DNA from: an uncultured bacterium | GTDB taxonomy: Bacteria; Zhuqueibacterota; QNDG01; JAGLOF01 | Assembly: GCA_964621645.1 (NCBI GenBank) | Contig: CAZUMH010000002.1 | Span: 8,928-72,927 of the forward strand | Direction of reading: 5' to 3' | Length of the DNA: 64,000 nucleotides | In this document: positions 43,197-56,079 of the stretch, one piece after another | How the letters are laid out: each line of letters opens with the position of its first letter | Numbering within the stretch: the stretch's first letter is position 1 | Translations under genes and position numbers: made by a program | The notes under the pieces: model-generated | What the model was told of the DNA's origin: nothing | What the model saw: the letters and a program-made list of their open reading frames with translations, nothing else | The model's database searches: none

Positions 43197-44198
43197 TTAT
43201 CTCCCCGGATCAGACTGAATCCAGCCGTTTTCCAGTCCGTAATCATCCAACCACTTTCTGGCCCGGCGATATTCACGTGAGGAGAGTCTCCTGTGCAGGG
43301 GAGGAATATTCACTGCTTGGTTGGCCGGGAAGTACTGGCTCATGAAACTGATATAGGTGGCGGGTGAGATCTCCCGGGTAATGAATTCAAGAACCCGGCG
43401 GGTAGCGGACAGATCTTCGGGAAGCAGCAGGTGCCTGATAATCAAACCGGAAACGGCGATGCCTTCTTCATCCATCACGAGGTCGCCGACCTGCAGGTAC
43501 ATCTCACGGATCGCAGTCTGATTAATGGATGGGTAGTCTGGAGCCGCTGAGCAGTGAAGAGCAGCTTCGGAGTCTCCATATTTCATATCCGGCAGGTAGA
43601 TATCCACAATACCCCGCAGCAGCCGCAGTGCTGTCAGTGATTCATACCCACCTGAGTTGTAGACAAGCGGAATCCGCAGTCCTCCTCTGTAGGCGAATAG
43701 CAGTGCTTCCATGATCTGGGGAACAAAATGGGTCGGGGTAACGAGGTTAATGTTGTGCGCCCCGGCCGTTTGCAGGCGGAGCATTCTGCGGGCCAAATCC
43801 TGCGGTTCAAGCGTTTCTCCATGACGCAGCTGACTGATGGGGTAGTTTTGGCAGAAGAGGCAGTGCAGGGAGCAGCCGGTAAAAAATATGGTGCCTGATC
43901 CACGGCTGCCGGATAGAGGCGGCTCTTCGCCGTGATGCAGATTATCAGATGAGACGACCAGTTCCCGGCCCATGCCGCATTCTCCCCGCTCATCAGCAGT
44001 TCTGTCAACGCCGCAATGACGGGGACAAACCCGGCACTTTTGCAGGAGGGCCATGGCGGCATCCAGCCGCTTTTCCAATCGTTCTATTTTGTCTTTCGTG
44101 CCCAGGATCATATTCCCGTCGTTTCCCCCGTAAAGAGAAGCTTCCATTCCCTCATGCAGACTGATTGGTGTCCCCTTAGGAAGCGGCATTGGGATCAT
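43197..44198 (-). CDS. Radical SAM enzyme of the PflA-like activase type, with an N-terminal CxxCPRxC...ECG Cys cluster (AmmeMemoRadiSam-like)
   Basis: CSLHCLFCQNY (CX3CX2C + QN), an N-terminal CRVCPRHCGVDR...GECG preamble, GEEP, and a Gly-rich SAM motif. Confidence 0.65.
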   Translation of the reverse strand: MIPMPLPKGTPISLHEGMEASLYGGNDGNMILGTKDKIERLEKRLDAAMALLQKCRVCPRHCGVDRTADERGECGMGRELVVSSDNLHHGEEPPLSGSRGSGTIFFTGCSLHCLFCQNYPISQLRHGETLEPQDLARRMLRLQTAGAHNINLVTPTHFVPQIMEALLFAYRGGLRIPLVYNSGGYESLTALRLLRGIVDIYLPDMKYGDSEAALHCSAAPDYPSINQTAIREMYLQVGDLVMDEEGIAVSGLIIRHLLLPEDLSATRRVLEFITREISPATYISFMSQYFPANQAVNIPPLHRRLSSREYRRARKWLDDYGLENGWIQSDPGR

Positions 44199-44801: not shown

Positions 44802-45629
44802 TTACAATTGTTCATCCCGTTGTCGCGAGACAAGGGTAAAGGGAGTGCCATACTTTTTTTTCAGCTGGTCACCAAACTTTCGCGCCTCTTCTGAATCGGT
44901 AAACGATCCGATCCAGACCAGATAGAGGAGCACATCGTCTTTGCGTTTTGTGGCGAGGCGGACCTGATAGCCTTTCTGTTCAAAGAATGATTTCCTGAGA
45001 AGGGCCCGCTGCTGTTGACTGAAGGCTCCTACCTGCACCACCCATTCCTGGCCGGATTCCTGAGGTTGGTCTCCCGGACCGAACCTTCCTCCCAGTGAGT
45101 CCAGGGCCGCGGCAGCCAATTCGGATATCTGATTCACCGTGTAGCGGTACGCGGCTTCCCGAAAGGCGAGTCCCGCCGAGTCCCGCTGCCCTAGAGCCAG
45201 ATAACATCGTCCCAGCCAATACCAACTCTCCTGAATATGTCCTGATCCTGGAAAGTGTTCACGCAACCCGATATATCGGCTGCGGGCCTGCTGGTAAAGA
45301 CCGCGGGCATAGGCCAGATGTCCCAGGCGAAGGAGGGCAAAATCACTATAAGAAAAGGAAGGATAATCTGTCAGCAGTTTATAATAGAGAACCGCGGCCG
45401 AGTCAGCCTGTATGGTAAGAAGGGCTTGCAAGAAAAGAGTCTCGGCAGGGGAATTATCCGGGGCCATTTTTTCGATCAGCGACCGGGCCTCTGCTATATG
45501 GCCCTGCTGCACCAGCTCCACCACCGAATTGATCGTCTGACCCCTGAGAAGGTTGCTGCCGAGTATGAAAAGCAGCGTCAGGAAAATCAGTTGCTTACGA
45601 GGACGCACAAGTATCTTCCTTCTCTGCAT
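44802..45629 (-). CDS. Signal peptide + TPR repeats + C-terminal SPOR (septal peptidoglycan-binding) domain protein
   Basis: C-terminal WVVQVGAFSQQQRA...YQVRLATKRKDDVLLYLVWIGSFTDSEEARKFGDQLKKKYG has the SPOR fold; TPRs sit centrally. Confidence 0.7.
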   Translation of the reverse strand: MQRRKILVRPRKQLIFLTLLFILGSNLLRGQTINSVVELVQQGHIAEARSLIEKMAPDNSPAETLFLQALLTIQADSAAVLYYKLLTDYPSFSYSDFALLRLGHLAYARGLYQQARSRYIGLREHFPGSGHIQESWYWLGRCYLALGQRDSAGLAFREAAYRYTVNQISELAAAALDSLGGRFGPGDQPQESGQEWVVQVGAFSQQQRALLRKSFFEQKGYQVRLATKRKDDVLLYLVWIGSFTDSEEARKFGDQLKKKYGTPFTLVSRQRDEQL

Positions 45630-45640
45630 TCGAGCTTACG

Positions 45641-46774
45641 CTAAAAGGTATCCCAGCCGCCGCAGGAAGGACAACGCCAGATCAGTTCTTCCGTTTCGTG
45701 GCCGCAGGTCCGGCAGATATATTTAACCGCCTTGGCTTTTTGTACGGTGATGATTTCCAGCGCTTTTTTCAACGCTTCTTCACAGCTGCCCTGTTCGTTA
45801 AGCAGAGTTACCAAAAGATATTTTGTTTCCATCGATTCAGGGAAGGAGGCAAGAACATCACGGCACTGTTGAACCGCCTTGCCCATACTGCCCTGTTTCT
45901 GATAGAATTCCGCCAACTGTAAAGCCGCGTGTGGATTCCCGGGTTTTTTACTGATTACCTTTTGATAGATTTTTTCCATTTCACTGAACTGTCCCAGATC
46001 GAAGAGAACTTCTCGCAGTCTGGAAAAGGCCAGGTGGGCCTCAGCGGGGATTTTTTCCGTGAATTCCCGCCATTCATGCAGGGCGTCATGGTCCCGATCC
46101 TCCCTGCGGTAAGAGTCGCCAATATAGAGGTACGCGGGGATGCATTTGCGATCGATCTTTAAGGCCTCCCGGTAGCGGATCCGGCTCTCCCGCTCGGATC
46201 CATTCTCAGCCAGAGCCAGTCCCGACTGTACCTTATATAGGGCTAAAAGGTGCTGATCCCCCTTCTTTTGCCACTTGTTGAGGCTCTGCCTGTAAAAGAA
46301 GGCCTTATCCCAATCATGCTTCTCTTCGTAGGCAGAGAGCAGCAGTTTTTGATATTCCCTGTTTTTCTTGTCTTTTTCTATGAGCCGTTCTGCCATCTCT
46401 ACAGCCCGGTCCAGGGCGCCGTATTCCCGGTAGTCTTTCACCAGATGAAACAGAACAAGGCGCGTCTGTTTTTCATTGAGATCACCCCGGACCAGAAGAT
46501 TACGGTGTATTTTTGCTCCCAGAAGCGGATTGCCCTTGCGTCTGTAAATATCGCCCAGCTGGATATAGGCCATAATATTATCACTGTCCAGTCGTACCGT
46601 GCGCTTCAGATCTTCCAGGGCGTCGTCCTCCCGGCCCTCCAGCAATTTATGTAGCGCTTCCAGGTAGGGACTGGCAGCCCGAGATGTATGCTTCCGGCGT
46701 CGCCCCGCCAGCAGGCCGATGACGACAATAATCACGAGTGCGGCTCCCGCCGCGATGAGTAGAGTGGTACTCAT
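45641..46774 (-). CDS. lapB: LapB (YciM): lipopolysaccharide assembly protein B, with TPRs and a C-terminal rubredoxin-like zinc finger
   Basis: N-terminal TM, 9 TPR-like repeats, C-terminal YICRTCGHETEELIWRCPSCGGW. Confidence 0.8.
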   Translation of the reverse strand: MSTTLLIAAGAALVIIVVIGLLAGRRRKHTSRAASPYLEALHKLLEGREDDALEDLKRTVRLDSDNIMAYIQLGDIYRRKGNPLLGAKIHRNLLVRGDLNEKQTRLVLFHLVKDYREYGALDRAVEMAERLIEKDKKNREYQKLLLSAYEEKHDWDKAFFYRQSLNKWQKKGDQHLLALYKVQSGLALAENGSERESRIRYREALKIDRKCIPAYLYIGDSYRREDRDHDALHEWREFTEKIPAEAHLAFSRLREVLFDLGQFSEMEKIYQKVISKKPGNPHAALQLAEFYQKQGSMGKAVQQCRDVLASFPESMETKYLLVTLLNEQGSCEEALKKALEIITVQKAKAVKYICRTCGHETEELIWRCPSCGGWDTF

Positions 46775-46795: not shown

Positions 46796-47149
46796 TTACT
46801 GTTCAGCGGCCGGTTCTGCAGGTAATTCTTCTTCTTTGTCGGCTGATTCCTCGGTGACCAGTTCATCGATGTCGATATTGCGCAACCGGCTGATCTCTTC
46901 CCGTAGTTTACGGTTTTCCCGCTGCAGTTTGAGTATTGCGCCTTTTTGTTTCAGGATATTGAATATCGAAACCAGCGCCCAGAAAAGCAGACCGATCCCA
47001 AAGGAGATATAGAGAAGGATGTAAAGCGGTATTTGGGGGGAAGTCCAGTTAATGATAGTTACAGATGCTGAAGTATCCTGATTCTGCAGGGCAAAACCCA
47101 GCACCGCGAGTATGATAATTGCTCCAAGAATCCAACGTACTATCCACAT
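46796..47149 (-). CDS. lapA: LapA (YciS)-like inner-membrane protein (DUF1049)
   Basis: Two TM helices then a short coiled coil (LQRENRKLREEISRL); immediately upstream of lapB as in E. coli. Confidence 0.6.
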   Translation of the reverse strand: MWIVRWILGAIIILAVLGFALQNQDTSASVTIINWTSPQIPLYILLYISFGIGLLFWALVSIFNILKQKGAILKLQRENRKLREEISRLRNIDIDELVTEESADKEEELPAEPAAEQ

Positions 47150-48504
47150 AATTTCCTCCGGGATTTAGGTGCGGAATAAACCGAATCGGAAGCAAGAGGG
47201 ATCCCCCGCAAGGTTGATCCGGCCAGAGAAGTGATCCGCACTATCGTACGTTCACCGGGATGCAGATCCCGGCCGGGAAATATAACTGCCTGGTCGGTAC
47301 GGCTCCGGCCCATCCACTCGGACGGATTCTGTTTGCTGGGGATTTCGACCATTACCTCCACGGTCTTTCCGATCAGTTCTTTTTTTATTTCCAGTGAAAT
47401 ATTTCTTTGCAAATCAATAAGCAGCCGCAGGCGCTCCAGCCGGATTTCATCGGGCAGCTGATCCGGCATCGATGCGGCAGGTGTACCGCTGCGGGGCGAG
47501 AAATGGTAGGTGAAGGCGTCCTGAAAACGCACTTCGCTCACCAGGCGGCAGGTATCTTCGAATTCTGCTTCAGTCTCGCCGGGAAAGCCTACCATAATAT
47601 CCGTAGTCAGGGCGACATCCGGTATTACACGGCGAATATTCGCCACCAGGTTCAGGTAATCCGCGGAAGAGTACCCGCGATTCATGCGCCGCAGGATTCG
47701 GTCGGATCCAGCCTGAAGCGGCAGATGAATATGTTCGCAGATATTATCCCCGTCGGCGATCACCTCTAACAGTTTTGGAGAAAGATCTTTTGGGTGCGAG
47801 GTCAGAAAGCGAAGCCTGGGAATTGCGGCAGAAGAAGAAATCCGTCCCAGCAGTCCCGGAAAGTCGATCACGCCGTCCTGATAGGAGTTCACGTTCTGTC
47901 CAAGCAGTGTTAATTCACGATATCCCTGCCGTTCCAGGAGTGCTATCTCCCTCAGAATTTCATTCGCAGGGCGGCTGCGCTCCCTTCCCCGGGTGTAGGG
48001 AACGATACAGTAGGAACAGAAATTATTGCAGCCGCGCATGATGGTCAGCCAGGCTGAAAGCCCTCCTTCACGCCGGGGAGTGATGCCTTCGTAGAGTTCC
48101 TTGTGGTCCAGACGGGAGTGGCAGGAGGCAGCTGATGTTCCGAGAAGTTCGGGAAGGTCCCGGTAGGAGTCGGGTCCGACCACCAGATCCAGGTGGGGTT
48201 TTATGGTCAGAAGTTCATCTCCCAACCGCTGGGCCATACAGCCGATGACTCCGAGGCGGCGGCCCTTTTTCTTCTCTTTCCAGCCGGCCAGAGAGGATAT
48301 CCGTCCCAGGGCCCGGTCTTCAGCGTGCTGCCGAACCGAGCAGGTATTGATAAGAAGGAGGTCCGCCGTTTCTGGTGAAGCAGCCTTGCGCCAGCCGTTT
48401 CTCGCCAGGATGCTTTCCACTATTTCCGTGTCGCTCTTGTTCATCTGGCAGCCATATGTCTCAATGAAAACAGCCGGCTGTCCTATTTGTCTTGATTCAT
48501 CCAT
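47140..48504 (-). CDS. miaB: tRNA-i6A37 methylthiotransferase MiaB (radical SAM MTTase). Start is ATG at 48504; the ORF track extends to 48624.
   Basis: MTTase N-domain (FIETYGCQMNKSDTE), radical SAM CNNFCSYCIVPYTRG, TRAM domain. Confidence 0.9.
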   Translation of the reverse strand: MDESRQIGQPAVFIETYGCQMNKSDTEIVESILARNGWRKAASPETADLLLINTCSVRQHAEDRALGRISSLAGWKEKKKGRRLGVIGCMAQRLGDELLTIKPHLDLVVGPDSYRDLPELLGTSAASCHSRLDHKELYEGITPRREGGLSAWLTIMRGCNNFCSYCIVPYTRGRERSRPANEILREIALLERQGYRELTLLGQNVNSYQDGVIDFPGLLGRISSSAAIPRLRFLTSHPKDLSPKLLEVIADGDNICEHIHLPLQAGSDRILRRMNRGYSSADYLNLVANIRRVIPDVALTTDIMVGFPGETEAEFEDTCRLVSEVRFQDAFTYHFSPRSGTPAASMPDQLPDEIRLERLRLLIDLQRNISLEIKKELIGKTVEVMVEIPSKQNPSEWMGRSRTDQAVIFPGRDLHPGERTIVRITSLAGSTLRGIPLASDSVYSAPKSRRKLCG

Positions 48505-48640
48505 GAGTAGTAAAATGTAGCGGAAAAAGGTGGTAAATGCAAATTTTTTCTTAGGCCGGGGCAGAGTCTGCGGCTCGATATGTCTGGAGATAGTGGGAAG
48601 ACGAATGCCGGCGCATCCGATCAACCGCTCCAGGAAGTGA

Positions 48641-49138
48641 TCAAGGCTGTATTTGTTTTACATAGATATACTTGGAGTCTCCGGGGGCGTAAAAATCCGG
48701 GAGCACGGCGGCTTCCATATAACCGCAGCGCAGGTAGAAGCTGCGGGTGGGCCGATAGAGATCGAGCCCGGAAGTCTCGATGTAGATCCTCGTGCCTCCC
48801 AGGTCTCGGATCCGCTCTTCCGTCCGGACGATGAGCACCTTACCGAGGCCGGCCCCCTGGGCGTCGGGATGAACGGCGATCCAATAGAGATCGTAACTGG
48901 AGCTGGTGACCGGGATAGGGCCGAAACAGGTATATCCGAGCACGATCCCGCCCCGCTCGGCAAAGATAAAGTGGTAGCCGCTGGCCAGATCCTTTTCCAG
49001 TCTTTCGCGGGCCAGTTCAGCGGCGAGGTCGATCTCATCCTCCGAAAAATACTTGGTGGCGCCGACAATCCGGCGGATGGACGCTTCGTCATCCGGTCCG
49101 ATGGTTTCACGATAGCTGATTTCTTCTGGTACCGCCAT
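48641..49138 (-). CDS. GNAT-family N-acetyltransferase (165 aa)
   Basis: Acetyl-CoA motif A (QGAGLGKVLI) and motif B; 32-nt overlap with the upstream gene. Confidence 0.75.
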   Translation of the reverse strand: MAVPEEISYRETIGPDDEASIRRIVGATKYFSEDEIDLAAELARERLEKDLASGYHFIFAERGGIVLGYTCFGPIPVTSSSYDLYWIAVHPDAQGAGLGKVLIVRTEERIRDLGGTRIYIETSGLDLYRPTRSFYLRCGYMEAAVLPDFYAPGDSKYIYVKQIQP

Positions 49139-50906
49139 TTGTTTTCTCCTTTGCCTGACCCGGATGAACCTGGTGACAACCCTGCCAAAGTCCCGTGAAA
49201 AAAGAGCGGGCGTTTATGCCGAGAGAACGGACACGATAGCCTCCTTCCTGGACGACAATAATTGGAAGGCCCAGCGATCCGATCATACGGCCGTTCTCCT
49301 GAAAATCTGCAGCCCGCAGATTCCAGGAACCGGTGGGATCCCCCCTGGCGGTGTCAAGCCCCAGGGCTACGACCAGAAAATTCGGCTCATACCGCCGTAT
49401 TCGCCGCAGGGCCACCTCCAAAGCCCGCCGGTATCGTTCACCACTGATATTTTCTTCCAACGGAATATTGAGGTTATATCCGGTCCCGTCATCAGAGCCA
49501 CGCTCTTCGGAAAATCCGCTGAAATAGGGATAGGTGAAGCGGGGGTGCCCGTGGATCGATACAGTGAGCACGTCAGGGCGCTGGTAAAATATCATCTGCT
49601 GGCCGTTGCCGTGATGATAATCAATATCGAGGATGGCCACCTTGCCGAAGCCGCTGAGTAAGTGTGCCGCGATGGCGGTGGAATTGAAATAGCAGAATCC
49701 TCCGAAAACATTTGCTTCCGCGTGATGACCCGGGGGACGAACCAGAGCGTAGGCGATACGGTGACCTTCAAGAAGACAGTGAGCCGCGGTGAGGGTGCAG
49801 TCCACGGCCCGTTTTGCGGCCAGGAAAGCGTTATGATTGAGAGGGGTAAAGGTGTCGATGCAGTAGTAACCCGCTCTGATGAAAAGTTCTTTGGGGGGAC
49901 GGGCCTGGTTCCGGATGGGAAAGACATACGGGTAAACCGACTTGCCGGCGGGGAGCTTGCGGCATACGGTCTGCAGGTAGTGTACGAAGCGGGTGTCATG
50001 TACAGCGGTGATGTGGCGCTCGGCGAATACCTTCGGTTTACGGTTTTCAAAGAGACCTGTGGGAATAATTTCCTTCAGAATAGCATTGACCCGCACCGGG
50101 GCCTCCACATAGCCGCGATCATGGACCTGATGGATTTCATGCCGGTCGTTTACTACCAGGGCGATCCTGCTGTCCATGGCGAAATATTTGTTTGTCCGGT
50201 GTGTTCCCGTGATCTTGCTGTATTTTGGAGCGCGGAGGCGGATCGGGTTGTCCTGGAAGGAGTTCACTACTGTGTCAATGTACCCCTCGGGACAGACCGT
50301 GCCGTACTTTCGTTCCAGGATGGCCCAGACGATGGCACGGGCCTTTTTTTGTGAAAGGGGGATACCGCTGCCCAGATCATCGAAGACAAGGTAGGGGGGG
50401 CAGTCATCTCCCGGGGTCAGAGGAGTTTCATATTTTGTCCCTGTAATCGGTCTGGCGCCATAGCGTTCGTAGAAACGCAGACGGGCGGCGTTTTGTTTGA
50501 CATGATCCGGATCGCGGCAGAGATCCGCATCATCGGGAAGGCATTCGAAGAAGAGGCCGGTAACATCCAGTTCCCGGGCTGTATCGCGGACGATTTCATA
50601 AAGGGCCCCTCCAATTCCCCGTCCCGTCTTCTGCTGCGCCGCGGATATGTAATCCAGATAACAGAAACGCACATCGGCGGCATGCAGCAGAAGGGCGAAT
50701 CCTTTCACCCTCCTCTTTTCATCCTCTGCCACGATCAGCATAGTACGGAAGCGGTATTTCAGCGGATTGAGCAGTTTATGCGGCAGTTCGTCGATATCCT
50801 CTTCGGGCAGCTCATAAAACTGAGTCCTCAGGATCTGCTGTACCTGGGAGATCGCCTCCTTGTTAAGGGGAAGCGTGTTATCGTAGATACGCCTAACGTG
50901 GAACAT
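49107..50906 (-). CDS. Fusion protein: N-terminal GNAT acetyltransferase-like domain + C-terminal histone-deacetylase-family (AcuC/acetylpolyamine amidohydrolase-type) Zn deacetylase
   Basis: GNAT core (GFALLLHAADVRFCYLDYISAAQQKTGRGIGGALY); HDAC motifs LVRPPGHHAE, ILDIDYHHGNGQQ, GLDTARGDPTG, VVQEGGY. Confidence 0.8.
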   Translation of the reverse strand: MFHVRRIYDNTLPLNKEAISQVQQILRTQFYELPEEDIDELPHKLLNPLKYRFRTMLIVAEDEKRRVKGFALLLHAADVRFCYLDYISAAQQKTGRGIGGALYEIVRDTARELDVTGLFFECLPDDADLCRDPDHVKQNAARLRFYERYGARPITGTKYETPLTPGDDCPPYLVFDDLGSGIPLSQKKARAIVWAILERKYGTVCPEGYIDTVVNSFQDNPIRLRAPKYSKITGTHRTNKYFAMDSRIALVVNDRHEIHQVHDRGYVEAPVRVNAILKEIIPTGLFENRKPKVFAERHITAVHDTRFVHYLQTVCRKLPAGKSVYPYVFPIRNQARPPKELFIRAGYYCIDTFTPLNHNAFLAAKRAVDCTLTAAHCLLEGHRIAYALVRPPGHHAEANVFGGFCYFNSTAIAAHLLSGFGKVAILDIDYHHGNGQQMIFYQRPDVLTVSIHGHPRFTYPYFSGFSEERGSDDGTGYNLNIPLEENISGERYRRALEVALRRIRRYEPNFLVVALGLDTARGDPTGSWNLRAADFQENGRMIGSLGLPIIVVQEGGYRVRSLGINARSFFTGLWQGCHQVHPGQAKEKTNGGTRRNQLS

Positions 50907-51885
50907 TCGTCACCCCCAGAGAATCCTCCAAAATCCTTTCGATAACCTTGTCATACGGCAGAGCGGCTCTTTCCCCGGCGGCGATAAAGCCGCTGTCCGG
51001 AGAGATGCAGGGATTGGCATTGACTTCGAGCACGAAAGGGTTCCCGGCGGCATCGACCCTGATATCGACCCGGGCATAGCCCCGCAGAGAGAAAAGGTTC
51101 CAGCAGCGCAGTGAAATTTCTCTCAGCCGGTCGATGAGATCATTGTCCTCGGGATTAAAATCGAAAGAGCGGACCGTATGATGATATTCAAAGGAGGACG
51201 AATCCCACTTTGCTTCATATCCGACCAGCCAGGGTTTGCCTTCCGGGTAATCCTGAAAGGTCATCTCGGCAGGCGGAAGCACTTCCGGTCCCTCACTGCC
51301 GGCCAGCAGAGAAATGTTGAATTCCCGGCCGTGGATATATAATTCCGCGAAACACTCACCGTAGCGGTTCATCCGCTCGGCCAGAACAGAAGGAAGATGT
51401 TTGACATCAGAGACGATAGCTTCCTCGTCCAGTCCCACCGAGGCGTCTTCGTTTACCGGTTTGATGATGAAAGGCGGCTTTATCCCGGGATTGTTCCCGA
51501 GTATCTCTTTTCCTCCGGCCCAGGGGGGAGTGGGGATGCCTCCGGCCCGGAGCCGCTCTTTCGCCAGCAGTTTGTTGGTGGTCAAATAGAGAGCCTCACT
51601 GCTCGCGCCCGTGAAGGGGAGCCGCAGCTCCTCCAGCAGGGCGGGGGCGAAATAGATGAAGCGGCCGGCTCCGCCGATGGATTCGACCAGATTGAAGACG
51701 ATCTCCGGTGTGAATCGCAGCAGTGCTTCCCTGGCCTCTAGCAGGTTGAGCGAGAGGGGCAGGTGTTCCACCTCATATCCCAGTTTTGTCAGGGCCTTGG
51801 AGACATGGTCCATCTGCACCAGGACGTCCTGTTCATCTTCCGGCGAGTCACAGGAGACCTGGTTGAAGAGAATCACGGCTTTCAT
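50893..51885 (-). CDS. ATP-grasp ligase of the D-Ala-D-Ala-ligase family (paralog A)
   Basis: Ddl-like N-domain, ATP-grasp fold motifs (FIIKPVNEDASVG, RVDIRVDAAGNPFVLEVNANPCIS); 4-nt overlap with paralog B. Confidence 0.75.
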   Translation of the reverse strand: MKAVILFNQVSCDSPEDEQDVLVQMDHVSKALTKLGYEVEHLPLSLNLLEAREALLRFTPEIVFNLVESIGGAGRFIYFAPALLEELRLPFTGASSEALYLTTNKLLAKERLRAGGIPTPPWAGGKEILGNNPGIKPPFIIKPVNEDASVGLDEEAIVSDVKHLPSVLAERMNRYGECFAELYIHGREFNISLLAGSEGPEVLPPAEMTFQDYPEGKPWLVGYEAKWDSSSFEYHHTVRSFDFNPEDNDLIDRLREISLRCWNLFSLRGYARVDIRVDAAGNPFVLEVNANPCISPDSGFIAAGERAALPYDKVIERILEDSLGVTNVPR

Positions 51886-52874
51886 AGAAGGGCCGCTTTG
51901 ACCTTGACCCTTTCCATGGCGCTTTCCAGAATCATTTTAAAAAGCTGCCGGTAAGTAATGCCGTAATACGTACAGATAATAGGGAGGTCGGAATGCTCGG
52001 GATGGATGCCCGCCAGGGGGTTGAGCTCCATCACGTTGGGGACGCCCTTGTCATCGACCCGGAGATCGATTCGGCCTGCGTCCCGACACCCGAACGTGCG
52101 CCAGGTTTCCAGGGCGATTTCCACGGCCCGGAGGGCAAGCTCATCATTGACGGGAATATACCCCACGAATTCTTCGCATCTTTCCTTGTTCACATAAGAA
52201 TAGGCGAATTCTTCGGCGCCGCCTCTTAGCACGATCTCGACAACTCCAACAGAGCGTGCTGCGGGTCCCGTACCTACCAGACCTACGGTAAACTCCCGTC
52301 CCGGCAGATAGGTCTCCACCAGTACGGGCTGCCGGTAGGCAGCCAGAAGCCGGTCACAGACATCCCGCAGCTGCTCCCGGGTTTCAACCCTGGAAGAGGA
52401 ATCGATGCCTTTTCCCGTTCCCTCCGCCACAGGTTTGGCAAATAGAGGGAAGGGTAGGGTGATCGTTTCCACGTCTTCGATAACGCGGATTTCCTGAAAA
52501 TCAGGAGTGGGCAGACTGAAATCCCGCAACACTCTCTTGGTCATGGTTTTATGCAGAGTGAGTGCGAGGATGAGGGGTCCAGAAAATGTATAGGGGATGT
52601 CGTAGGCATCCAGCAGAGCAGGCACTTGCGCCTCCCGTCCGATGCCCCGCAATCCCTCGGCGATATTGAAGACCAGATCCCAGTGATCGCCCGAGGCCAG
52701 ACGTTTGGTCAGGCTCCAGATATTTCCGATCCGGTCTGTTTCGTGTCCCAGCTCCCGCAAGGTGTTCTCGATATTTTCGATGGTGGAGATACGGTCAAAT
52801 TCCGCCGTTTCTTCTTCACCATAGCCCAGGTCGAGATAATCCTGGCGCAGGTCGTAGGTAATGCCGATAATCAT
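51882..52874 (-). CDS. ATP-grasp ligase of the D-Ala-D-Ala-ligase family (paralog B)
   Basis: FNIAEGLRGIGREAQVPALLDAYDIPYTFSG (Ddl N-domain), FAKPVAEGTGKGI, RIDLRVDDKGVPNVMELNPLAG. Confidence 0.75.
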   Translation of the reverse strand: MIIGITYDLRQDYLDLGYGEEETAEFDRISTIENIENTLRELGHETDRIGNIWSLTKRLASGDHWDLVFNIAEGLRGIGREAQVPALLDAYDIPYTFSGPLILALTLHKTMTKRVLRDFSLPTPDFQEIRVIEDVETITLPFPLFAKPVAEGTGKGIDSSSRVETREQLRDVCDRLLAAYRQPVLVETYLPGREFTVGLVGTGPAARSVGVVEIVLRGGAEEFAYSYVNKERCEEFVGYIPVNDELALRAVEIALETWRTFGCRDAGRIDLRVDDKGVPNVMELNPLAGIHPEHSDLPIICTYYGITYRQLFKMILESAMERVKVKAALL

Positions 52875-53830
52875 AGCAGCTGCCTTTCTTCCGCTACCAG
52901 GCAGTCAGCCAGCGGGTCGCCGATAGAACCTTCCGGGTCGGGATACATGTAGATGTTCCCTTCATAGTTGCGCAGCAGCAGATTGTCTCCAGAGCGGCCG
53001 GCCACGTATTCGGGGAGAAGGGGAATCTTGCCGCCTCCGCCGGGGGCGTCGACTACGAAAGAGGGGACGGCATACCCTGAAGTGAATCCTCTCAGGCCGG
53101 CAATGATTTCCAATCCTTTTTCAACCGTGGTGCGGAAATGCGAGGTGCCGCGCACCGGGTCGCACTGATAGAGATAATAAGGCCGGACTCTGATTTTCAT
53201 CAGGCCCTGGTTCAGCCGGGTCATGGTCTCCACCCTGTCATTGACACCTTTGAGAAGCACGGTCTGGCTTCCCAGAGGAATGCCGGCGTCCGCCAGGCGT
53301 CGACAGGCTTCCGCTGTCTCGGGAGTCAGCTCATCAGGATGACTGAAATGAATGCTCATCCATAGGGGATGATATTTATGCAGCATCTCCACCAGCTGTT
53401 TCGTGATGCGTTGGGGCAGCACTACCGGCACTTTGGTCCCGATGCGTATCACTTCAACGTGAGGGATTCGCCGCACTTGCGAGATGAGCCATTCGAGTTT
53501 ACTGTCGGAGATGGTGAGCGGGTCACCGCCGGAAAGGAGAACATCCCGCACCTCAGGATGCTGTCTGATATACGATATGGCGTTTTCCCAGTACTGAGGA
53601 CTAATGTGGTGCATTTTTCTGACATCGCCCACGATGCGGGAGCGGGTGCAATAGCGGCAATAGACAGCGCAGAATCCCGTTACCAGAAAGAGAACCCGGT
53701 CAGGATAGCGATGCACAATTCCGGGGACAGGGGAGTCGTTGTCTTCCGAGAGCGGATCTTCCGCTTCCGATGGAGTGATATGATATTCATTATTGCTGAT
53801 AATAACCGTACGGCGTACCGCCTGGTTCAC
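52871..53830 (-). CDS. kamA: Lysine 2,3-aminomutase (KamA family, radical SAM/PLP), C-terminal about 320-aa portion. The gene continues upstream in another frame (feature 53827-54288), implying a frameshift or sequencing error.
   Basis: HRYPDRVLFLVTGFCAVYCRYCTR (CX3CX2C), PLP-Lys region, ITPYYASILDP encoded just upstream in the same frame. Confidence 0.85.
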   Translation of the reverse strand: MNQAVRRTVIISNNEYHITPSEAEDPLSEDNDSPVPGIVHRYPDRVLFLVTGFCAVYCRYCTRSRIVGDVRKMHHISPQYWENAISYIRQHPEVRDVLLSGGDPLTISDSKLEWLISQVRRIPHVEVIRIGTKVPVVLPQRITKQLVEMLHKYHPLWMSIHFSHPDELTPETAEACRRLADAGIPLGSQTVLLKGVNDRVETMTRLNQGLMKIRVRPYYLYQCDPVRGTSHFRTTVEKGLEIIAGLRGFTSGYAVPSFVVDAPGGGGKIPLLPEYVAGRSGDNLLLRNYEGNIYMYPDPEGSIGDPLADCLVAEERQLL

Positions 53831-54288
53831 ATCGGCCGGGTCGAGGATGCTGGCATAGTAGGGAGTGATGGAAAAAGGCAGTGGATTCTTGTGATCCAGA
53901 ATAGCTTCGATTTCTTCCGGTTGATTTTCGTTAAGGTCTGGATGTCTCTGATACGATTTTTTACCTGCCAGTGCCAGTCATTCCACTGGCTGTCCGGCAC
54001 GTTGGAAAAAAACAACCGACGAAATTGTCGTGTTCGTTTACTGATGACAAACGGTGGTTTTGATTTTGGTATTATTTTAAATTTATTGTGCGGGAAGGAT
54101 CCAGGAGTCACATTCAGGGCTCTTTGGACAAGAGCGGATTCTTCTGAGCGACGTCCATCAAGGACTTGATTTGAAAGGCGTTCCCCAAAGGGAGGATTTA
54201 CAAAGTGTTTGGTTTTGGCAGCACCGGTTAAACTGGTACCACCACCAGGAGGTTCGTCTTTGTCGTCAATAGAAGTTGTTGTTTTCAT
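53827..54288 (-). CDS. kamA: N-terminal portion of the same KamA gene in the -1 frame, plus an about 80-100-aa low-complexity N-terminal extension
   Basis: WNDWHWQVKNRIRDIQTLTKIN matches the conserved KamA N-terminal helix (WNDWxWQ...R...L); strong RBS GGAAGGAG before ATG 54288. The frame switch lies at about 53921-53931 in an A4/T4 run. Confidence 0.55.
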   Translation of the reverse strand: MKTTTSIDDKDEPPGGGTSLTGAAKTKHFVNPPFGERLSNQVLDGRRSEESALVQRALNVTPGSFPHNKFKIIPKSKPPFVISKRTRQFRRLFFSNVPDSQWNDWHWQVKNRIRDIQTLTKINRKKSKLFWITRIHCLFPSLPTMPASSTRPM

Positions 54289-54587: not shown

Positions 54588-55187
54588 ATGCTCTGTTTTA
54601 CAGGAAAATCCAAATTTACTGTTGATGCGAAACGCAGGGTAAATATTCCCGCTTCCGCTATTCTGGAACTGTATAAACAGAGCCAAGAGTACAAGCAGGA
54701 GGTCACCGGGGAAGCAGGGAATAATGAGATAAAAGAGAGTGAGGCGATCAAGAAGTTCAAGGAGTCGGCCATTATTTTTCATCTTACCAGGGGGCCGAAC
54801 GACTGTCTCTTCGTCTATCCCCGGGAAGTATTCATGGAAAAGGCGGCACGGCTCAGCGCTCACTTCGGATCCCGCGGCACCGATGATGAAGCACGGCGAT
54901 ATTTTCTGGAAACGATGGCGGATGCGCATCCAGTGCGCTGTGATCAACAGGGCAGGGTAACCGTTCCGCAAGAACACCTCGATTACGCGAAAATCAGTGA
55001 TCAGGTTCTGGTTGTCGGCGCTTTTGATCACCTGGAAATATGGTCCCCGGACGTATATGGGGCCTTTATCTCCGGAGGCAAGACGTCATCACAGGAGCGC
55101 GTCAAGCTGTTTGGCTGGGCGGAGCAAGAATCGGCGGCACATGGATCCTCTGACAGACACATTCCATCTCCCGATTCTGGTCGATGA
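54588..55187 (+). CDS. mraZ: MraZ transcriptional regulator, unusually long (199 aa) with an insertion between its two repeats
   Basis: Two MraZ repeats with DxxxR motifs (VDAKRRVNIP; CDQQGRVTVP). Confidence 0.85.
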   Translation: MLCFTGKSKFTVDAKRRVNIPASAILELYKQSQEYKQEVTGEAGNNEIKESEAIKKFKESAIIFHLTRGPNDCLFVYPREVFMEKAARLSAHFGSRGTDDEARRYFLETMADAHPVRCDQQGRVTVPQEHLDYAKISDQVLVVGAFDHLEIWSPDVYGAFISGGKTSSQERVKLFGWAEQESAAHGSSDRHIPSPDSGR

Positions 55188-56079
55188 AGTCGTTCATTTT
55201 TTTATTACTGACAGGTCGGGAACATACGTGGACGCCACCCTCGGTGGCGGCGGCTATGCCGCGGCTATTCTCCCCATCCTCAATAAGAAAGGCCGATATA
55301 TCGGAGTGGACAGGGATGAAGACGCTGTTCAGCACAGCCGCTCACGTTTCCCTGTTTCTGAAACCCGTTTCATAGCCCGGCAGGGCCAATTGGCTCAGCT
55401 GAATGAGGTGCTGAAGGAGGAGAAAATTTCCAGAATTGATGGATTGCTCTTAGACCTGGGTGTTTCTTCTTATCAGATCGATACGGCTGAACGGGGATTC
55501 GGCTATCTGGAAGAAGGGCCGCTTGATATGCGAATGGATCGCAGCAGCGGAAAAGATGCCTCTTTCGTCATCAATGAATATTCCGAAAAGGAACTGGCCG
55601 ATACTTTATACAAATATGGAGAGGAAAGAAGATCCCGTCAGATTGCCAGGGCTATCATCGCTTCCCGTGAGGCGAATCCCATCAACACCACGCTGGAACT
55701 CGCGGCTGTAATCCGCCGCATGACGCCGCGTCCCCATCAGATTAAAACCCTGGCTCGTGTCTGGCAGGCGCTGCGTTTTGAAGTAAATGGGGAATTGGAT
55801 CAATTAAGAAAGGGATTGGAGCGTAGTTACCCGCTGCTCAAATCGGGGGGCCGTATGGTGGTTCTCAGTTATGAGTCCCTTATGGACAGAATGGTGAAAC
55901 GGTTTTTCCGCGGTCAGGAGCCGCTCTTTTCCCGTTTTGAAGAACCCGGCACTGTTCCGGAGTATTCATTCACCATTCTGACAAAAAAGGTCGTGCGGTC
56001 CTCCGTGCAGGAAATAGCAGGCAATCCCCGCGCCCGAAGCGCAAGACTGCGGGCGGCAGAAAAAAAAGAGAAAGGCTAA
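55141..56079 (+). CDS. rsmH: 16S rRNA m4C1402 methyltransferase RsmH (MraW)
   Basis: HLPILVDEV, TYVDATLGGGGYAAAIL, LLDLGVSSYQID motifs. Confidence 0.9.
   Translation: MDPLTDTFHLPILVDEVVHFFITDRSGTYVDATLGGGGYAAAILPILNKKGRYIGVDRDEDAVQHSRSRFPVSETRFIARQGQLAQLNEVLKEEKISRIDGLLLDLGVSSYQIDTAERGFGYLEEGPLDMRMDRSSGKDASFVINEYSEKELADTLYKYGEERRSRQIARAIIASREANPINTTLELAAVIRRMTPRPHQIKTLARVWQALRFEVNGELDQLRKGLERSYPLLKSGGRMVVLSYESLMDRMVKRFFRGQEPLFSRFEEPGTVPEYSFTILTKKVVRSSVQEIAGNPRARSARLRAAEKKEKG

Follow-up and report, generated by a model that had tools for sequence, protein, structure and literature searches.

Within a window of 64,000 nucleotides from the genome of an uncultured bacterium of the Zhuqueibacterota (assembly GCA_964621645.1, contig CAZUMH010000002.1, positions 8,928 to 72,927 of the forward strand), a single open reading frame (ORF) of 599 codons (positions 49107..50906 of the window, minus strand) encodes a protein in which an N-terminal acetyltransferase domain of the GNAT type is joined to a C-terminal deacetylase domain of the histone deacetylase (HDAC) family. 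The fusion gene is the fourth of five genes in an operon that is read from the minus strand throughout and comprises, in this order, a gene for a homologue of the lysine 2,3-aminomutase KamA, two genes for ATP-grasp ligases, the fusion gene itself, and a gene for a small GNAT protein. Adjoining genes of the operon overlap by 4 to 32 nt, and the fusion gene, from its start codon on, shares 14 nt with the end of the ATP-grasp gene before it, an arrangement that suggests translational coupling. A previous inspection of the window (hereafter the sequence-only reading) had drawn attention to the two-domain polypeptide, without mention of the conserved five-gene operon that is the main clue to its function.

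As described in the sequence-only reading, a GNAT domain and an amidohydrolase domain of the HDAC family occur in one polypeptide: Pfam finds both of them in a frame that contains no internal stop codon, and we detected no frameshift that would split it into two separate genes, the alternative which that reading had named. The best 120 database homologues are full-length proteins of 576-616 aa that cover 96-100% of the query at 62-68% identity. An alignment of 25 homologues is colinear with the query across both domains and through the linker that joins them (aa 216-247; 50166..50261, minus strand), although the linker is variable in sequence, its alignment columns are poorly conserved and its residues 233-242 have a predicted local distance difference test (pLDDT) score below 50 in the full-length model. 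In a collection holding one genome per species, at least 585 matching stretches from many phyla have the same architecture. The carriers, hundreds of species and mostly uncultured anaerobes, include among the matches listed KSB1, Calditrichota (Calditrichaceae), Dehalococcoidia, many Desulfobacterota, Acidobacteriota, Planctomycetota, Nitrospiraceae, Woeseiaceae and others; judged by their titles, the records comprise metagenome-assembled genomes (MAGs) from groundwater and freshwater besides marine ones. The fused proteins form a clade set apart, with members that are at least about 60% identical to each other, while stand-alone HDAC relatives reach at most 43%.

Since the adjacent kamA gene is frameshifted in the same assembly, this contig is not free of errors, and an assembly artefact, in which two genes were merged by a frameshift or by the loss of a stop codon, had to be considered. 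It is refuted by the hundreds of independent assemblies, complete genomes among them, in which the same single-ORF architecture is found, and also by the colinearity of the alignment through the linker. Hence, we regard the fusion as genuine and give the artefact practically no credence. The fused architecture is already recorded in databases, where JGI labels such proteins 'AcuC-like enzyme/GNAT superfamily N-acetyltransferase'. In the full-text literature that we searched, whose scope leaves out most subscription journals, we found no paper on the fusion or on the five-gene cluster, and none that combines an aminomutase, an ATP-grasp enzyme and beta-lysine. The most extensive recent survey of classical deacylases in bacteria (Graf et al., 2024; PMC11532494) likewise makes no mention of GNAT fusions in its text or in the supplements that we examined. 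The suggestion that two opposing chemistries in one chain are unusual is therefore borne out for the literature only; it does not hold for the sequence databases, in which several hundred species carry the fusion and the JGI labels name both domains.

The N-terminal part of the fusion (aa 1-215; 50262..50906, minus strand) was assigned to the GNAT family by Pfam, by an AlphaFold (AF2) model, by Foldseek and by an hhalign comparison with the human diamine acetyltransferase SSAT1. The core of the GNAT fold ends at residue 176, and helices are added at residues 186-215. The division of the chain into about 190 and about 400 aa that had been proposed stands in its order but with amended sizes: a GNAT part of about 215 aa is followed by a linker of about 30 aa and a deacetylase part of about 330 aa. 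Pfam Acetyltransf_1 (PF00583) matches residues 22-127 of the full protein with an E-value of 1.5e-4 and 22.5 bits against a cut-off of 20.7 bits; the N-terminal domain alone scores 25.2 bits, and 19 of 20 diverse family members match the model as well (best E-value 2.7e-13). Because the score of the query is marginal, we subjected the assignment to independent tests. An AF2 model of residues 1-235, computed from a diverse alignment, reached a pLDDT of 93.5 and a predicted template modelling score (pTM) of 0.90, and a Foldseek search with the model of the domain gave 523 PDB matches at E <= 1e-3, the best 50 listed being GNAT-type acetyltransferases without exception. The closest of these are Gcn5/PCAF, nourseothricin acetyltransferase, the glycylthricin acetyltransferase OrfE, AAC(6')-Ii and SpeG; the highest identity to the domain is that of the streptothricin-class acetyltransferases (21-23%), compared with 11-16% for the Gcn5 matches. 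At the level of sequence, phmmer found no significant match to the N-terminal domain alone in the PDB, and a profile of its family gave only weak GNAT matches there (E-values 0.07-1.7). A profile-profile alignment by hhalign with SSAT1 (in a sequence identical to that of PDB 2B4D) yielded a probability of 82% and an E-value of 1e-5.

The residues expected of an active acetyltransferase appear to be in place. The acetyl-CoA loop QKTGRG (aa 92-97; 50616-50633, minus strand) is an intact pyrophosphate loop of the form Q/R-x-x-G-x-G/A. In the hhalign alignment, YLD(85)Y...GRGIG of the fusion is paired with YLE(92)D...GFGIG of SSAT1, and RFY(146)ERYGA with NFY(140)KRRGA. Consequently, D85 in the motif YLD (aa 83-85; 50652-50660, minus strand) aligns with SSAT1 E92, and Y146 in FYERYG (aa 145-150; 50457-50474, minus strand) aligns with SSAT1 Y140; in SSAT these two residues serve as the general base and the general acid, respectively. 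Down to relatives that are only 28-35% identical, position 85 is occupied by Asp or Glu throughout, and L84, G97, G99, L102, D125, R142, F145 and Y146 do not vary. Across phyla, the N-terminal domain is about as conserved as the HDAC domain (about 55-66% versus 62-74% identity). A search of 1.84 billion representative proteins with the N-terminal domain retrieved 556 relatives (representative clusters) at E <= 1e-3, and most of the matches listed are N-termini of GNAT-HDAC fusions or fragments thereof; many proteins in which the domain appears to stand alone are contig-end fragments that continue into the start of the HDAC domain, and few look truly stand-alone.

These data bear on the proposal that the GNAT part is non-catalytic and merely binds acetyl-CoA or a substrate, thereby regulating or targeting the deacetylase. 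The Pfam score barely above threshold speaks for such a module, and the family offers a precedent for decay, since the deacetylase part of one relative (P0155) has lost zinc ligands, indicating that domains in this family can degenerate. However, the N-terminal domain is conserved like its HDAC partner, with G97, G99, D125, R142, F145 and Y146 invariant, the acidic residue at position 85 kept, and D85 and Y146 aligned with the catalytic residues of SSAT. With the CoA loop, the acidic residue 85 and Y146 retained down to 28-35% identity, the non-catalytic alternative is disfavoured, and we judge it very unlikely. We take the N-terminal domain instead for a specialised GNAT that is probably catalytically competent.

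The C-terminal part (aa 248-578; 49173..50165, minus strand) is a deacetylase domain of the acetylpolyamine amidohydrolase type (APAH, or ApaH) and is matched by Pfam Hist_deacetyl (PF00850) at residues 267-571 with an E-value of 1.5e-73. All four HDAC motifs that had been singled out in the sequence-only reading are present on the minus strand: PPGHHA (aa 391-396; 49719-49736), DIDYHHGNG (aa 427-435; 49602-49628), GLDTARGDPTG (aa 516-526; 49329-49361) and EGGY (aa 554-557; 49236-49247). The zinc-binding and catalytic residues H394/H395, D429, H431, D518 and Y557 are invariant in the alignment of 25 sequences, and RPPGHHAE and QEGGY are found in 25 of these 25. The nearest sequences of solved structure are the APAHs 6PHR, 9GKZ, 3MEN and 3Q9B (E-values 1e-73 to 1e-60), followed by HDAC6 at about 1e-60 to 1e-57, with other bacterial and class II deacetylases at 1e-37 or weaker. 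A model of the full-length protein (pLDDT 75.9) ranks the folds in the same way, the APAHs standing first with TM scores of about 0.8 at 34-39% identity.

A further proposal in the sequence-only reading, a transacetylase-type mechanism, finds no support in this domain. HDAC-family enzymes hydrolyse their substrates with a zinc-activated water molecule and do not form an acyl-enzyme intermediate. Given this chemistry, and since the full set of hydrolytic residues is conserved in the fusion (the tandem His residues, the Asp-His-Asp zinc ligands and the catalytic Tyr), transacetylation is unlikely.

The bacterial polyamine deacetylases of 'cluster 4' have been defined by RPPGHH and EGGY, motifs that go with 'robust deacetylases', by the tripeptide PIS at the gatekeeper position of HDAC10, and by a 'polyamine-specificity' loop, L2, through which a head-to-head dimer is formed (Graf et al., 2024; PMC11532494). 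Enzymes of this cluster deacetylate N-acetylputrescine and N-acetylcadaverine, and they retain some lysine-deacetylase activity on peptides (PMC11532494). The fusion family has a highly conserved loop at aa 325-356 that matches L2 of ApaH in length and aligns with it; in the monomer model this loop is of low confidence. At the gatekeeper position, however, an invariant D523-P524-T525-G526 (PTG) stands where ApaH has DPIS. With one defining feature different, we do not file the domain as an orthodox ApaH, and given PTG instead of PIS, substrate specificity is not transferable from ApaH to the fusion. From its motifs and its nearest relatives we classify the HDAC domain as a predicted ApaH-like, narrow-tunnel hydrolase for N-acetylated aliphatic amines.

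The two domain assignments also allow one to weigh the idea that the fusion is a writer and eraser of protein-lysine acetylation, in the manner of AcuA and AcuC but within one chain, which would switch an enzyme of the cluster or some other protein. Gcn5 histone acetyltransferases are the top Foldseek neighbours of the N-terminal domain, and the residual peptide deacetylation by cluster-4 ApaH enzymes would fit as well (PMC11532494). Yet, the HDAC domain is far nearer to polyamine deacetylases (E-value about 1e-73) than to other HDAC classes (1e-37 or weaker), the spacing of the catalytic residues in the N-terminal domain is that of the small-molecule enzyme SSAT, and the identity to Gcn5 (11-16%) falls below that to the streptothricin-class acetyltransferases (21-23%). 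Moreover, the genes near the fusion include none for a conserved protein, acetyl-CoA synthetase for instance, that would be a candidate target. We therefore consider protein acetylation a quite improbable function.

A tblastn comparison of the operon proteins with 80 genome loci and 30 metagenome loci that contain the fusion showed this gene set around it. Forty loci were well flanked, that is, they extend for at least 5 kb on both sides of the fusion. In 34 of these 40, the complete set of kamA, two ATP-grasp genes and the small GNAT gene adjoins the fusion gene. The order kamA, ligase 1, ligase 2, small GNAT, fusion occurs in 16 loci, and the order of the window, with the last two genes exchanged, in 13; the remaining full sets show a few rarer arrangements, including divergent orientation. 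The small GNAT gene neighbours the fusion in 37 of the 80 genome loci. Unsupervised clustering of the ORFs in the 80 loci revealed no other widely recurrent family, no conserved transporter and no candidate target protein, and a gene for acetyl-CoA synthetase (acs) was not recurrent in these neighbourhoods. A search of the whole window with Rfam at gathering thresholds gave no match, and hence no riboswitch was seen upstream of the operon; scans for promoters and terminators did not rise above the expectation from shuffled sequence.

Two relatives of the fusion, P0129 (762 aa) and P0155 (738 aa), are triple fusions in which the small GNAT forms the C-terminus of a GNAT-HDAC-GNAT chain, a functional link between the small GNAT and the fusion. 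The zinc-site motif of P0155 reads LDLEGSHGNG rather than LDIDYHHGNG and its GLDTAKGDPTG motif is lost, so that its deacetylase domain seems to be degenerate while both of its GNAT domains look intact. Another chain, P0156 (ATP-grasp plus GNAT), has the appearance of a read-through across a frameshift, and we left it out of the evidence. An ORF for a membrane protein of about 200 aa recurs in seven loci, among them locus L017 from the Dehalococcoidales, where it sits between the small GNAT gene and the fusion gene (L017:7132-7734). By eye it resembles MarC/UPF0056 and could be a transporter for the product of the pathway.

The first gene of the operon (52871..54288, minus strand) encodes a KamA/AblA-like lysine 2,3-aminomutase of the radical-SAM type and is interrupted by a one-base frameshift in a run of four A residues (53925-53928), which splits it into ORFs 54288-53827 and 53830-52871. 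This may be either a sequencing error in the homopolymer or a real pseudogene; with one A added, the gene encodes a KamA protein of 472 aa that is colinear with its homologues. The C-terminal part of the unrepaired protein scores 447.7 bits against TIGR03820, the AblA model, which is also the best model for the repaired protein; the latter reaches 498 bits against a cut-off of 525.4, with about the last 55 positions of the model absent. The repaired protein scores 458 bits against the lysine 2,3-aminomutase of Clostridium subterminale (2a5h) and keeps D293 and D330, which bind the epsilon-ammonium group of lysine in that enzyme. Reported glutamate 2,3-aminomutases carry other residues at these two positions. 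Ahead of the usual WNDW start, the KamA protein has an N-terminal extension of about 90 residues (54013-54288, minus strand) that is weakly conserved (about 25-34% identity) in the nearest clusters (loci L005, L006, L013, L018, L022 and L064).

Both ATP-grasp ligases are proteins of 330 aa that resemble D-alanine-D-alanine ligase (Ddl). Ligase 1 (51882..52874, minus strand) and ligase 2 (50893..51885, minus strand) match Dala_Dala_lig_C with E-values of 4e-24 and 4e-19, but with 140 and 111 bits they stay below the 243-bit NCBIfam cut-off for Ddl. The residues of DdlB for ATP/Mg and for the second substrate (K215, R255, D257, E270 and N272) are kept in both proteins, whereas the triad for the first D-alanine, E15/S150/Y216, is lost in both, with other residues in place of E15 and Y216; the position of H63 is taken by an invariant Glu. 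On these residues, both proteins are probably active ligases whose substrates are other than those of Ddl and whose first-substrate pocket differs.

The small GNAT gene (48641..49138, minus strand) encodes 165 aa. It shares 32 nt with the 3' end of the fusion gene but is equipped with a separate ribosome-binding site, AGGAG. Its product matches PF00583 with an E-value of 2.3e-12 and the PDB entry 2R7H (Dde_3044) with an E-value of 3e-41. The latter is a structural-genomics entry named 'putative D-alanine N-acetyltransferase' for which neither the PDB entry nor the literature searched gives a function; its name was probably taken from the Ddl-like genes nearby and may mislead. The corresponding locus of Oleidesulfovibrio alaskensis G20 was not among the best 120 homologues of the small GNAT. 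JGI labels some small GNATs even 'D-alanine-D-alanine ligase'. At E <= 0.01, no NCBIfam family matches the fusion, and six match the small GNAT, of which the best, rimI, scores far below its cut-off.

With the fused chain, its apparently intact catalytic residues in both domains, the types of these domains and the conserved gene linkage as our observations, we favour the view, to which we assign a chance a little below even, that the fusion is a bifunctional enzyme for handling acetyl groups on small molecules. It would serve a five-gene pathway with an SSAT-like diamine N-acetyltransferase and an APAH-type zinc deacetylase, putting an acetyl group on and later removing it, with the two reactions taking place at different steps or concerning different nitrogens of a beta-lysine derivative that the ligases build. 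In such a pathway, the KamA homologue would turn L-lysine into beta-lysine (3,6-diaminohexanoate), the two Ddl-like ATP-grasp ligases would form amide bonds on this scaffold, and the GNAT domain of the fusion, the small GNAT and the deacetylase would add and remove N-acetyl groups. The logic of acetylation could be to protect, ligate and deprotect, or to relocate an acetyl group between amines, and the two domains of the fusion would then be sequential partners on pathway intermediates rather than a transacetylase or a simple futile cycle. That two ligases and three acetyl-handling domains are inherited together is what leads us to place the acetyl chemistry at different steps or nitrogens.

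Beta-lysine carries its amines four carbons apart, the spacing found in putrescine, and can be viewed as a carboxymethyl-substituted putrescine. Owing to this spacing, SSAT-like and ApaH-like enzymes would be expected to act on it. By virtue of its chemical structure, N-epsilon-acetyl-beta-lysine likewise shares the skeleton of N-acetylputrescine and N-acetylcadaverine. An acetylated amine such as acetyl-beta-lysine, the substrate envisaged in the sequence-only reading, thus fits the context of an operon that is headed by an aminomutase gene and encodes an APAH-type domain. Going one step further, we would tentatively suggest, while thinking it somewhat more probably wrong than right, that the module makes a so far undescribed beta-lysine pseudo-peptide or oligo-amide that is widespread in anaerobes of at least 10 phyla and in whose synthesis N-acetylation by a writer-eraser enzyme transiently protects amines or masks their charge. 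Such a product might stand in for polyamines, act as an osmolyte or resemble a cofactor.

Several points weigh against the pathway that we favour. The substrates, the order of the steps and the nature of the final product are ones that we infer, the order purely so. The deacetylase has PTG at the gatekeeper position, where the polyamine deacetylases characterised from bacteria have PIS, this assembly contains kamA in a frameshifted form, and the AblB model TIGR03827 is absent from the NCBIfam matches (E <= 0.01) of both the fusion and the small GNAT. The literature that we covered is silent on the fusion as well as on the cluster. In addition, 6 of the 40 well-flanked loci, including that on the complete chromosome of Desulfuromonas carbonis, have the fusion without the cluster nearby, and no gene recurs among the neighbours of these fusion-only loci. 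Their existence implies that the enzyme may also act on a general metabolite, for example on ordinary polyamines. In D. carbonis (locus L001, CP015080.1), the fusion gene lies directly downstream of genes for a MarR regulator, an outer-membrane factor, a membrane-fusion protein and a transporter of the major facilitator superfamily (MFS), which together resemble an EmrAB efflux set; a fragment of a ParE toxin gene comes after it. This context may hint at export of an acetylated amine, in this lineage only.

The main rival to the proposed pathway is a reversible rheostat, in which the GNAT domain acetylates and the HDAC domain deacetylates the same amine, be it beta-lysine and N-epsilon-acetyl-beta-lysine, a beta-lysine oligo-amide or the ordinary polyamines. 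Charge and pool size would be controlled in this way, and the net direction would be set by the acetyl-CoA/CoA ratio, by salt or by another signal. Both domains are of the types that carry out the opposing steps of polyamine acetylation, although in the known cases, SSAT and HDAC10/APAH, such control is exerted by separate proteins. Regulation by a single polypeptide with two opposing activities has precedents in other enzymes, as in SpoT, in PFK2/FBPase2 and in glutathionylspermidine synthetase/amidase. The six loci without the cluster nearby would fit a self-contained function, and the linkage to kamA would fit N-epsilon-acetyl-beta-lysine, a known osmolyte (PMC3543383). On the other hand, an unregulated enzyme of this kind would run a futile cycle that wastes acetyl-CoA, and no regulatory domain is evident in the chain. 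A rheostat also leaves the two conserved ATP-grasp ligases and the further GNAT without a role, and neither of the two GNATs is AblB-like. Since some of the carriers are MAGs from groundwater and freshwater, it is not obvious that a role as an osmolyte would hold in general. Taken together, we regard the rheostat as unlikely, and we retain the sequential use of the two domains on a beta-lysine derivative as our preferred interpretation.

Downstream, a gap of 16 nt separates the operon from miaB (47140-48624), which is followed by lapA (46796-47149), by lapB with a C-terminal zinc ribbon (45641-46774) and by a gene for a TPR-SPOR protein (44802-45629), all on the minus strand; the adjacency of miaB to the operon is not conserved in other loci, and lapA and lapB suggest an organism with lipopolysaccharide. 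Farther on, an ORF of 333 aa (43197-44198, minus strand) has a CxxxCxxC radical-SAM motif and scores 29.3 bits in Pfam, just below the cut-off of 29.5 bits. On the other side and divergent from the kamA operon lie mraZ and rsmH (mraW) (54588-56079, plus strand), genes that normally open the cluster for division and cell-wall synthesis. The listed ORFs 54588-55187 and 54997-56079 overlap, and the start of rsmH is therefore probably located downstream of the listed one.

The families of the individual domains are known, but their fused architecture, the PTG variant of the gatekeeper and the five-gene context with beta-lysine and ATP-grasp enzymes appear to be uncharacterised. Acetylation and deacetylation of polyamine-like amines are normally carried out by separate and separately regulated enzymes; here they are combined in one chain, sometimes in a three-domain one. 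Solving the function of the cluster would probably reveal a new beta-lysine-derived metabolite together with its physiological role, and it would widen the known substrate range of bacterial HDAC-family enzymes. It would also allow misleading annotations to be corrected, such as 'histone deacetylase family protein', 'D-alanine-D-alanine ligase' and 'D-alanine N-acetyltransferase'.

Among characterised enzymes, the APAHs of Mycoplana ramosa (3Q9B), Marinobacter subterrani (6PHR) and Pseudomonas sp. (9GKZ) share with the fusion the fold, the zinc ligands, the tandem His residues and the catalytic Tyr, the RPPGHH and EGGY motifs, and a long L2-type loop of similar length before GYY. Unlike these enzymes, the fusion has an N-terminal GNAT domain and PTG in place of the gatekeeper PIS, and its gene neighbours are kamA and ATP-grasp genes instead of genes for polyamine catabolism. 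The N-terminal domain resembles SSAT1 in its GNAT fold, in the spacing from the acidic base to GxG and in the tyrosine of FY(E/K)R(Y/R)G, and it has SpeG, NAT (5C82) and OrfE (7YPU) as structural neighbours; NAT-type enzymes acetylate the beta-lysine moiety of streptothricins. In contrast to these acetyltransferases, to which it is 13-23% identical, it possesses an extra N-terminal helical segment and the C-terminal helices at aa 186-215, and it constitutes a small family of its own that is almost always fused to an HDAC domain.

In the AcuA/AcuC pair of Bacillus subtilis, which controls acetyl-CoA synthetase, a GNAT is likewise genetically coupled to a classical zinc deacetylase. However, AcuA and AcuC are not joined in one chain and they act on a protein, and linkage to AcsA is not seen around the fusion. 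The HDAC domain is not of the AcuC type either, as its nearest solved relatives are ApaH enzymes and AcuC falls into another HDAC cluster, 2c (PMC11532494). The N-epsilon-acetyl-beta-lysine pathway of methanogens, also proposed in Pelobacter, relies on AblA and AblB (PMC3543383) and shares with our cluster an AblA-like lysine 2,3-aminomutase that is encoded together with a GNAT acetyltransferase. In distinction to this two-gene pathway, the cluster contains two ATP-grasp ligases and a deacetylase, and its KamA protein scores under the AblA cut-off. With respect to the use of acetylation, the biosyntheses of arginine, bialaphos and puromycin resemble the pathway that we propose, in that each combines an N-acetyltransferase and an N-deacetylase with amide-forming enzymes that act on the acetylated intermediate. 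The acetyl group serves as a protecting group in all three of them (N-acetylglutamate/ArgE, Pat/Dea and Pac/NapH, respectively). Their deacetylases belong to other families (M20 or esterase types), are not fused to the acetyltransferase and act on other substrates.

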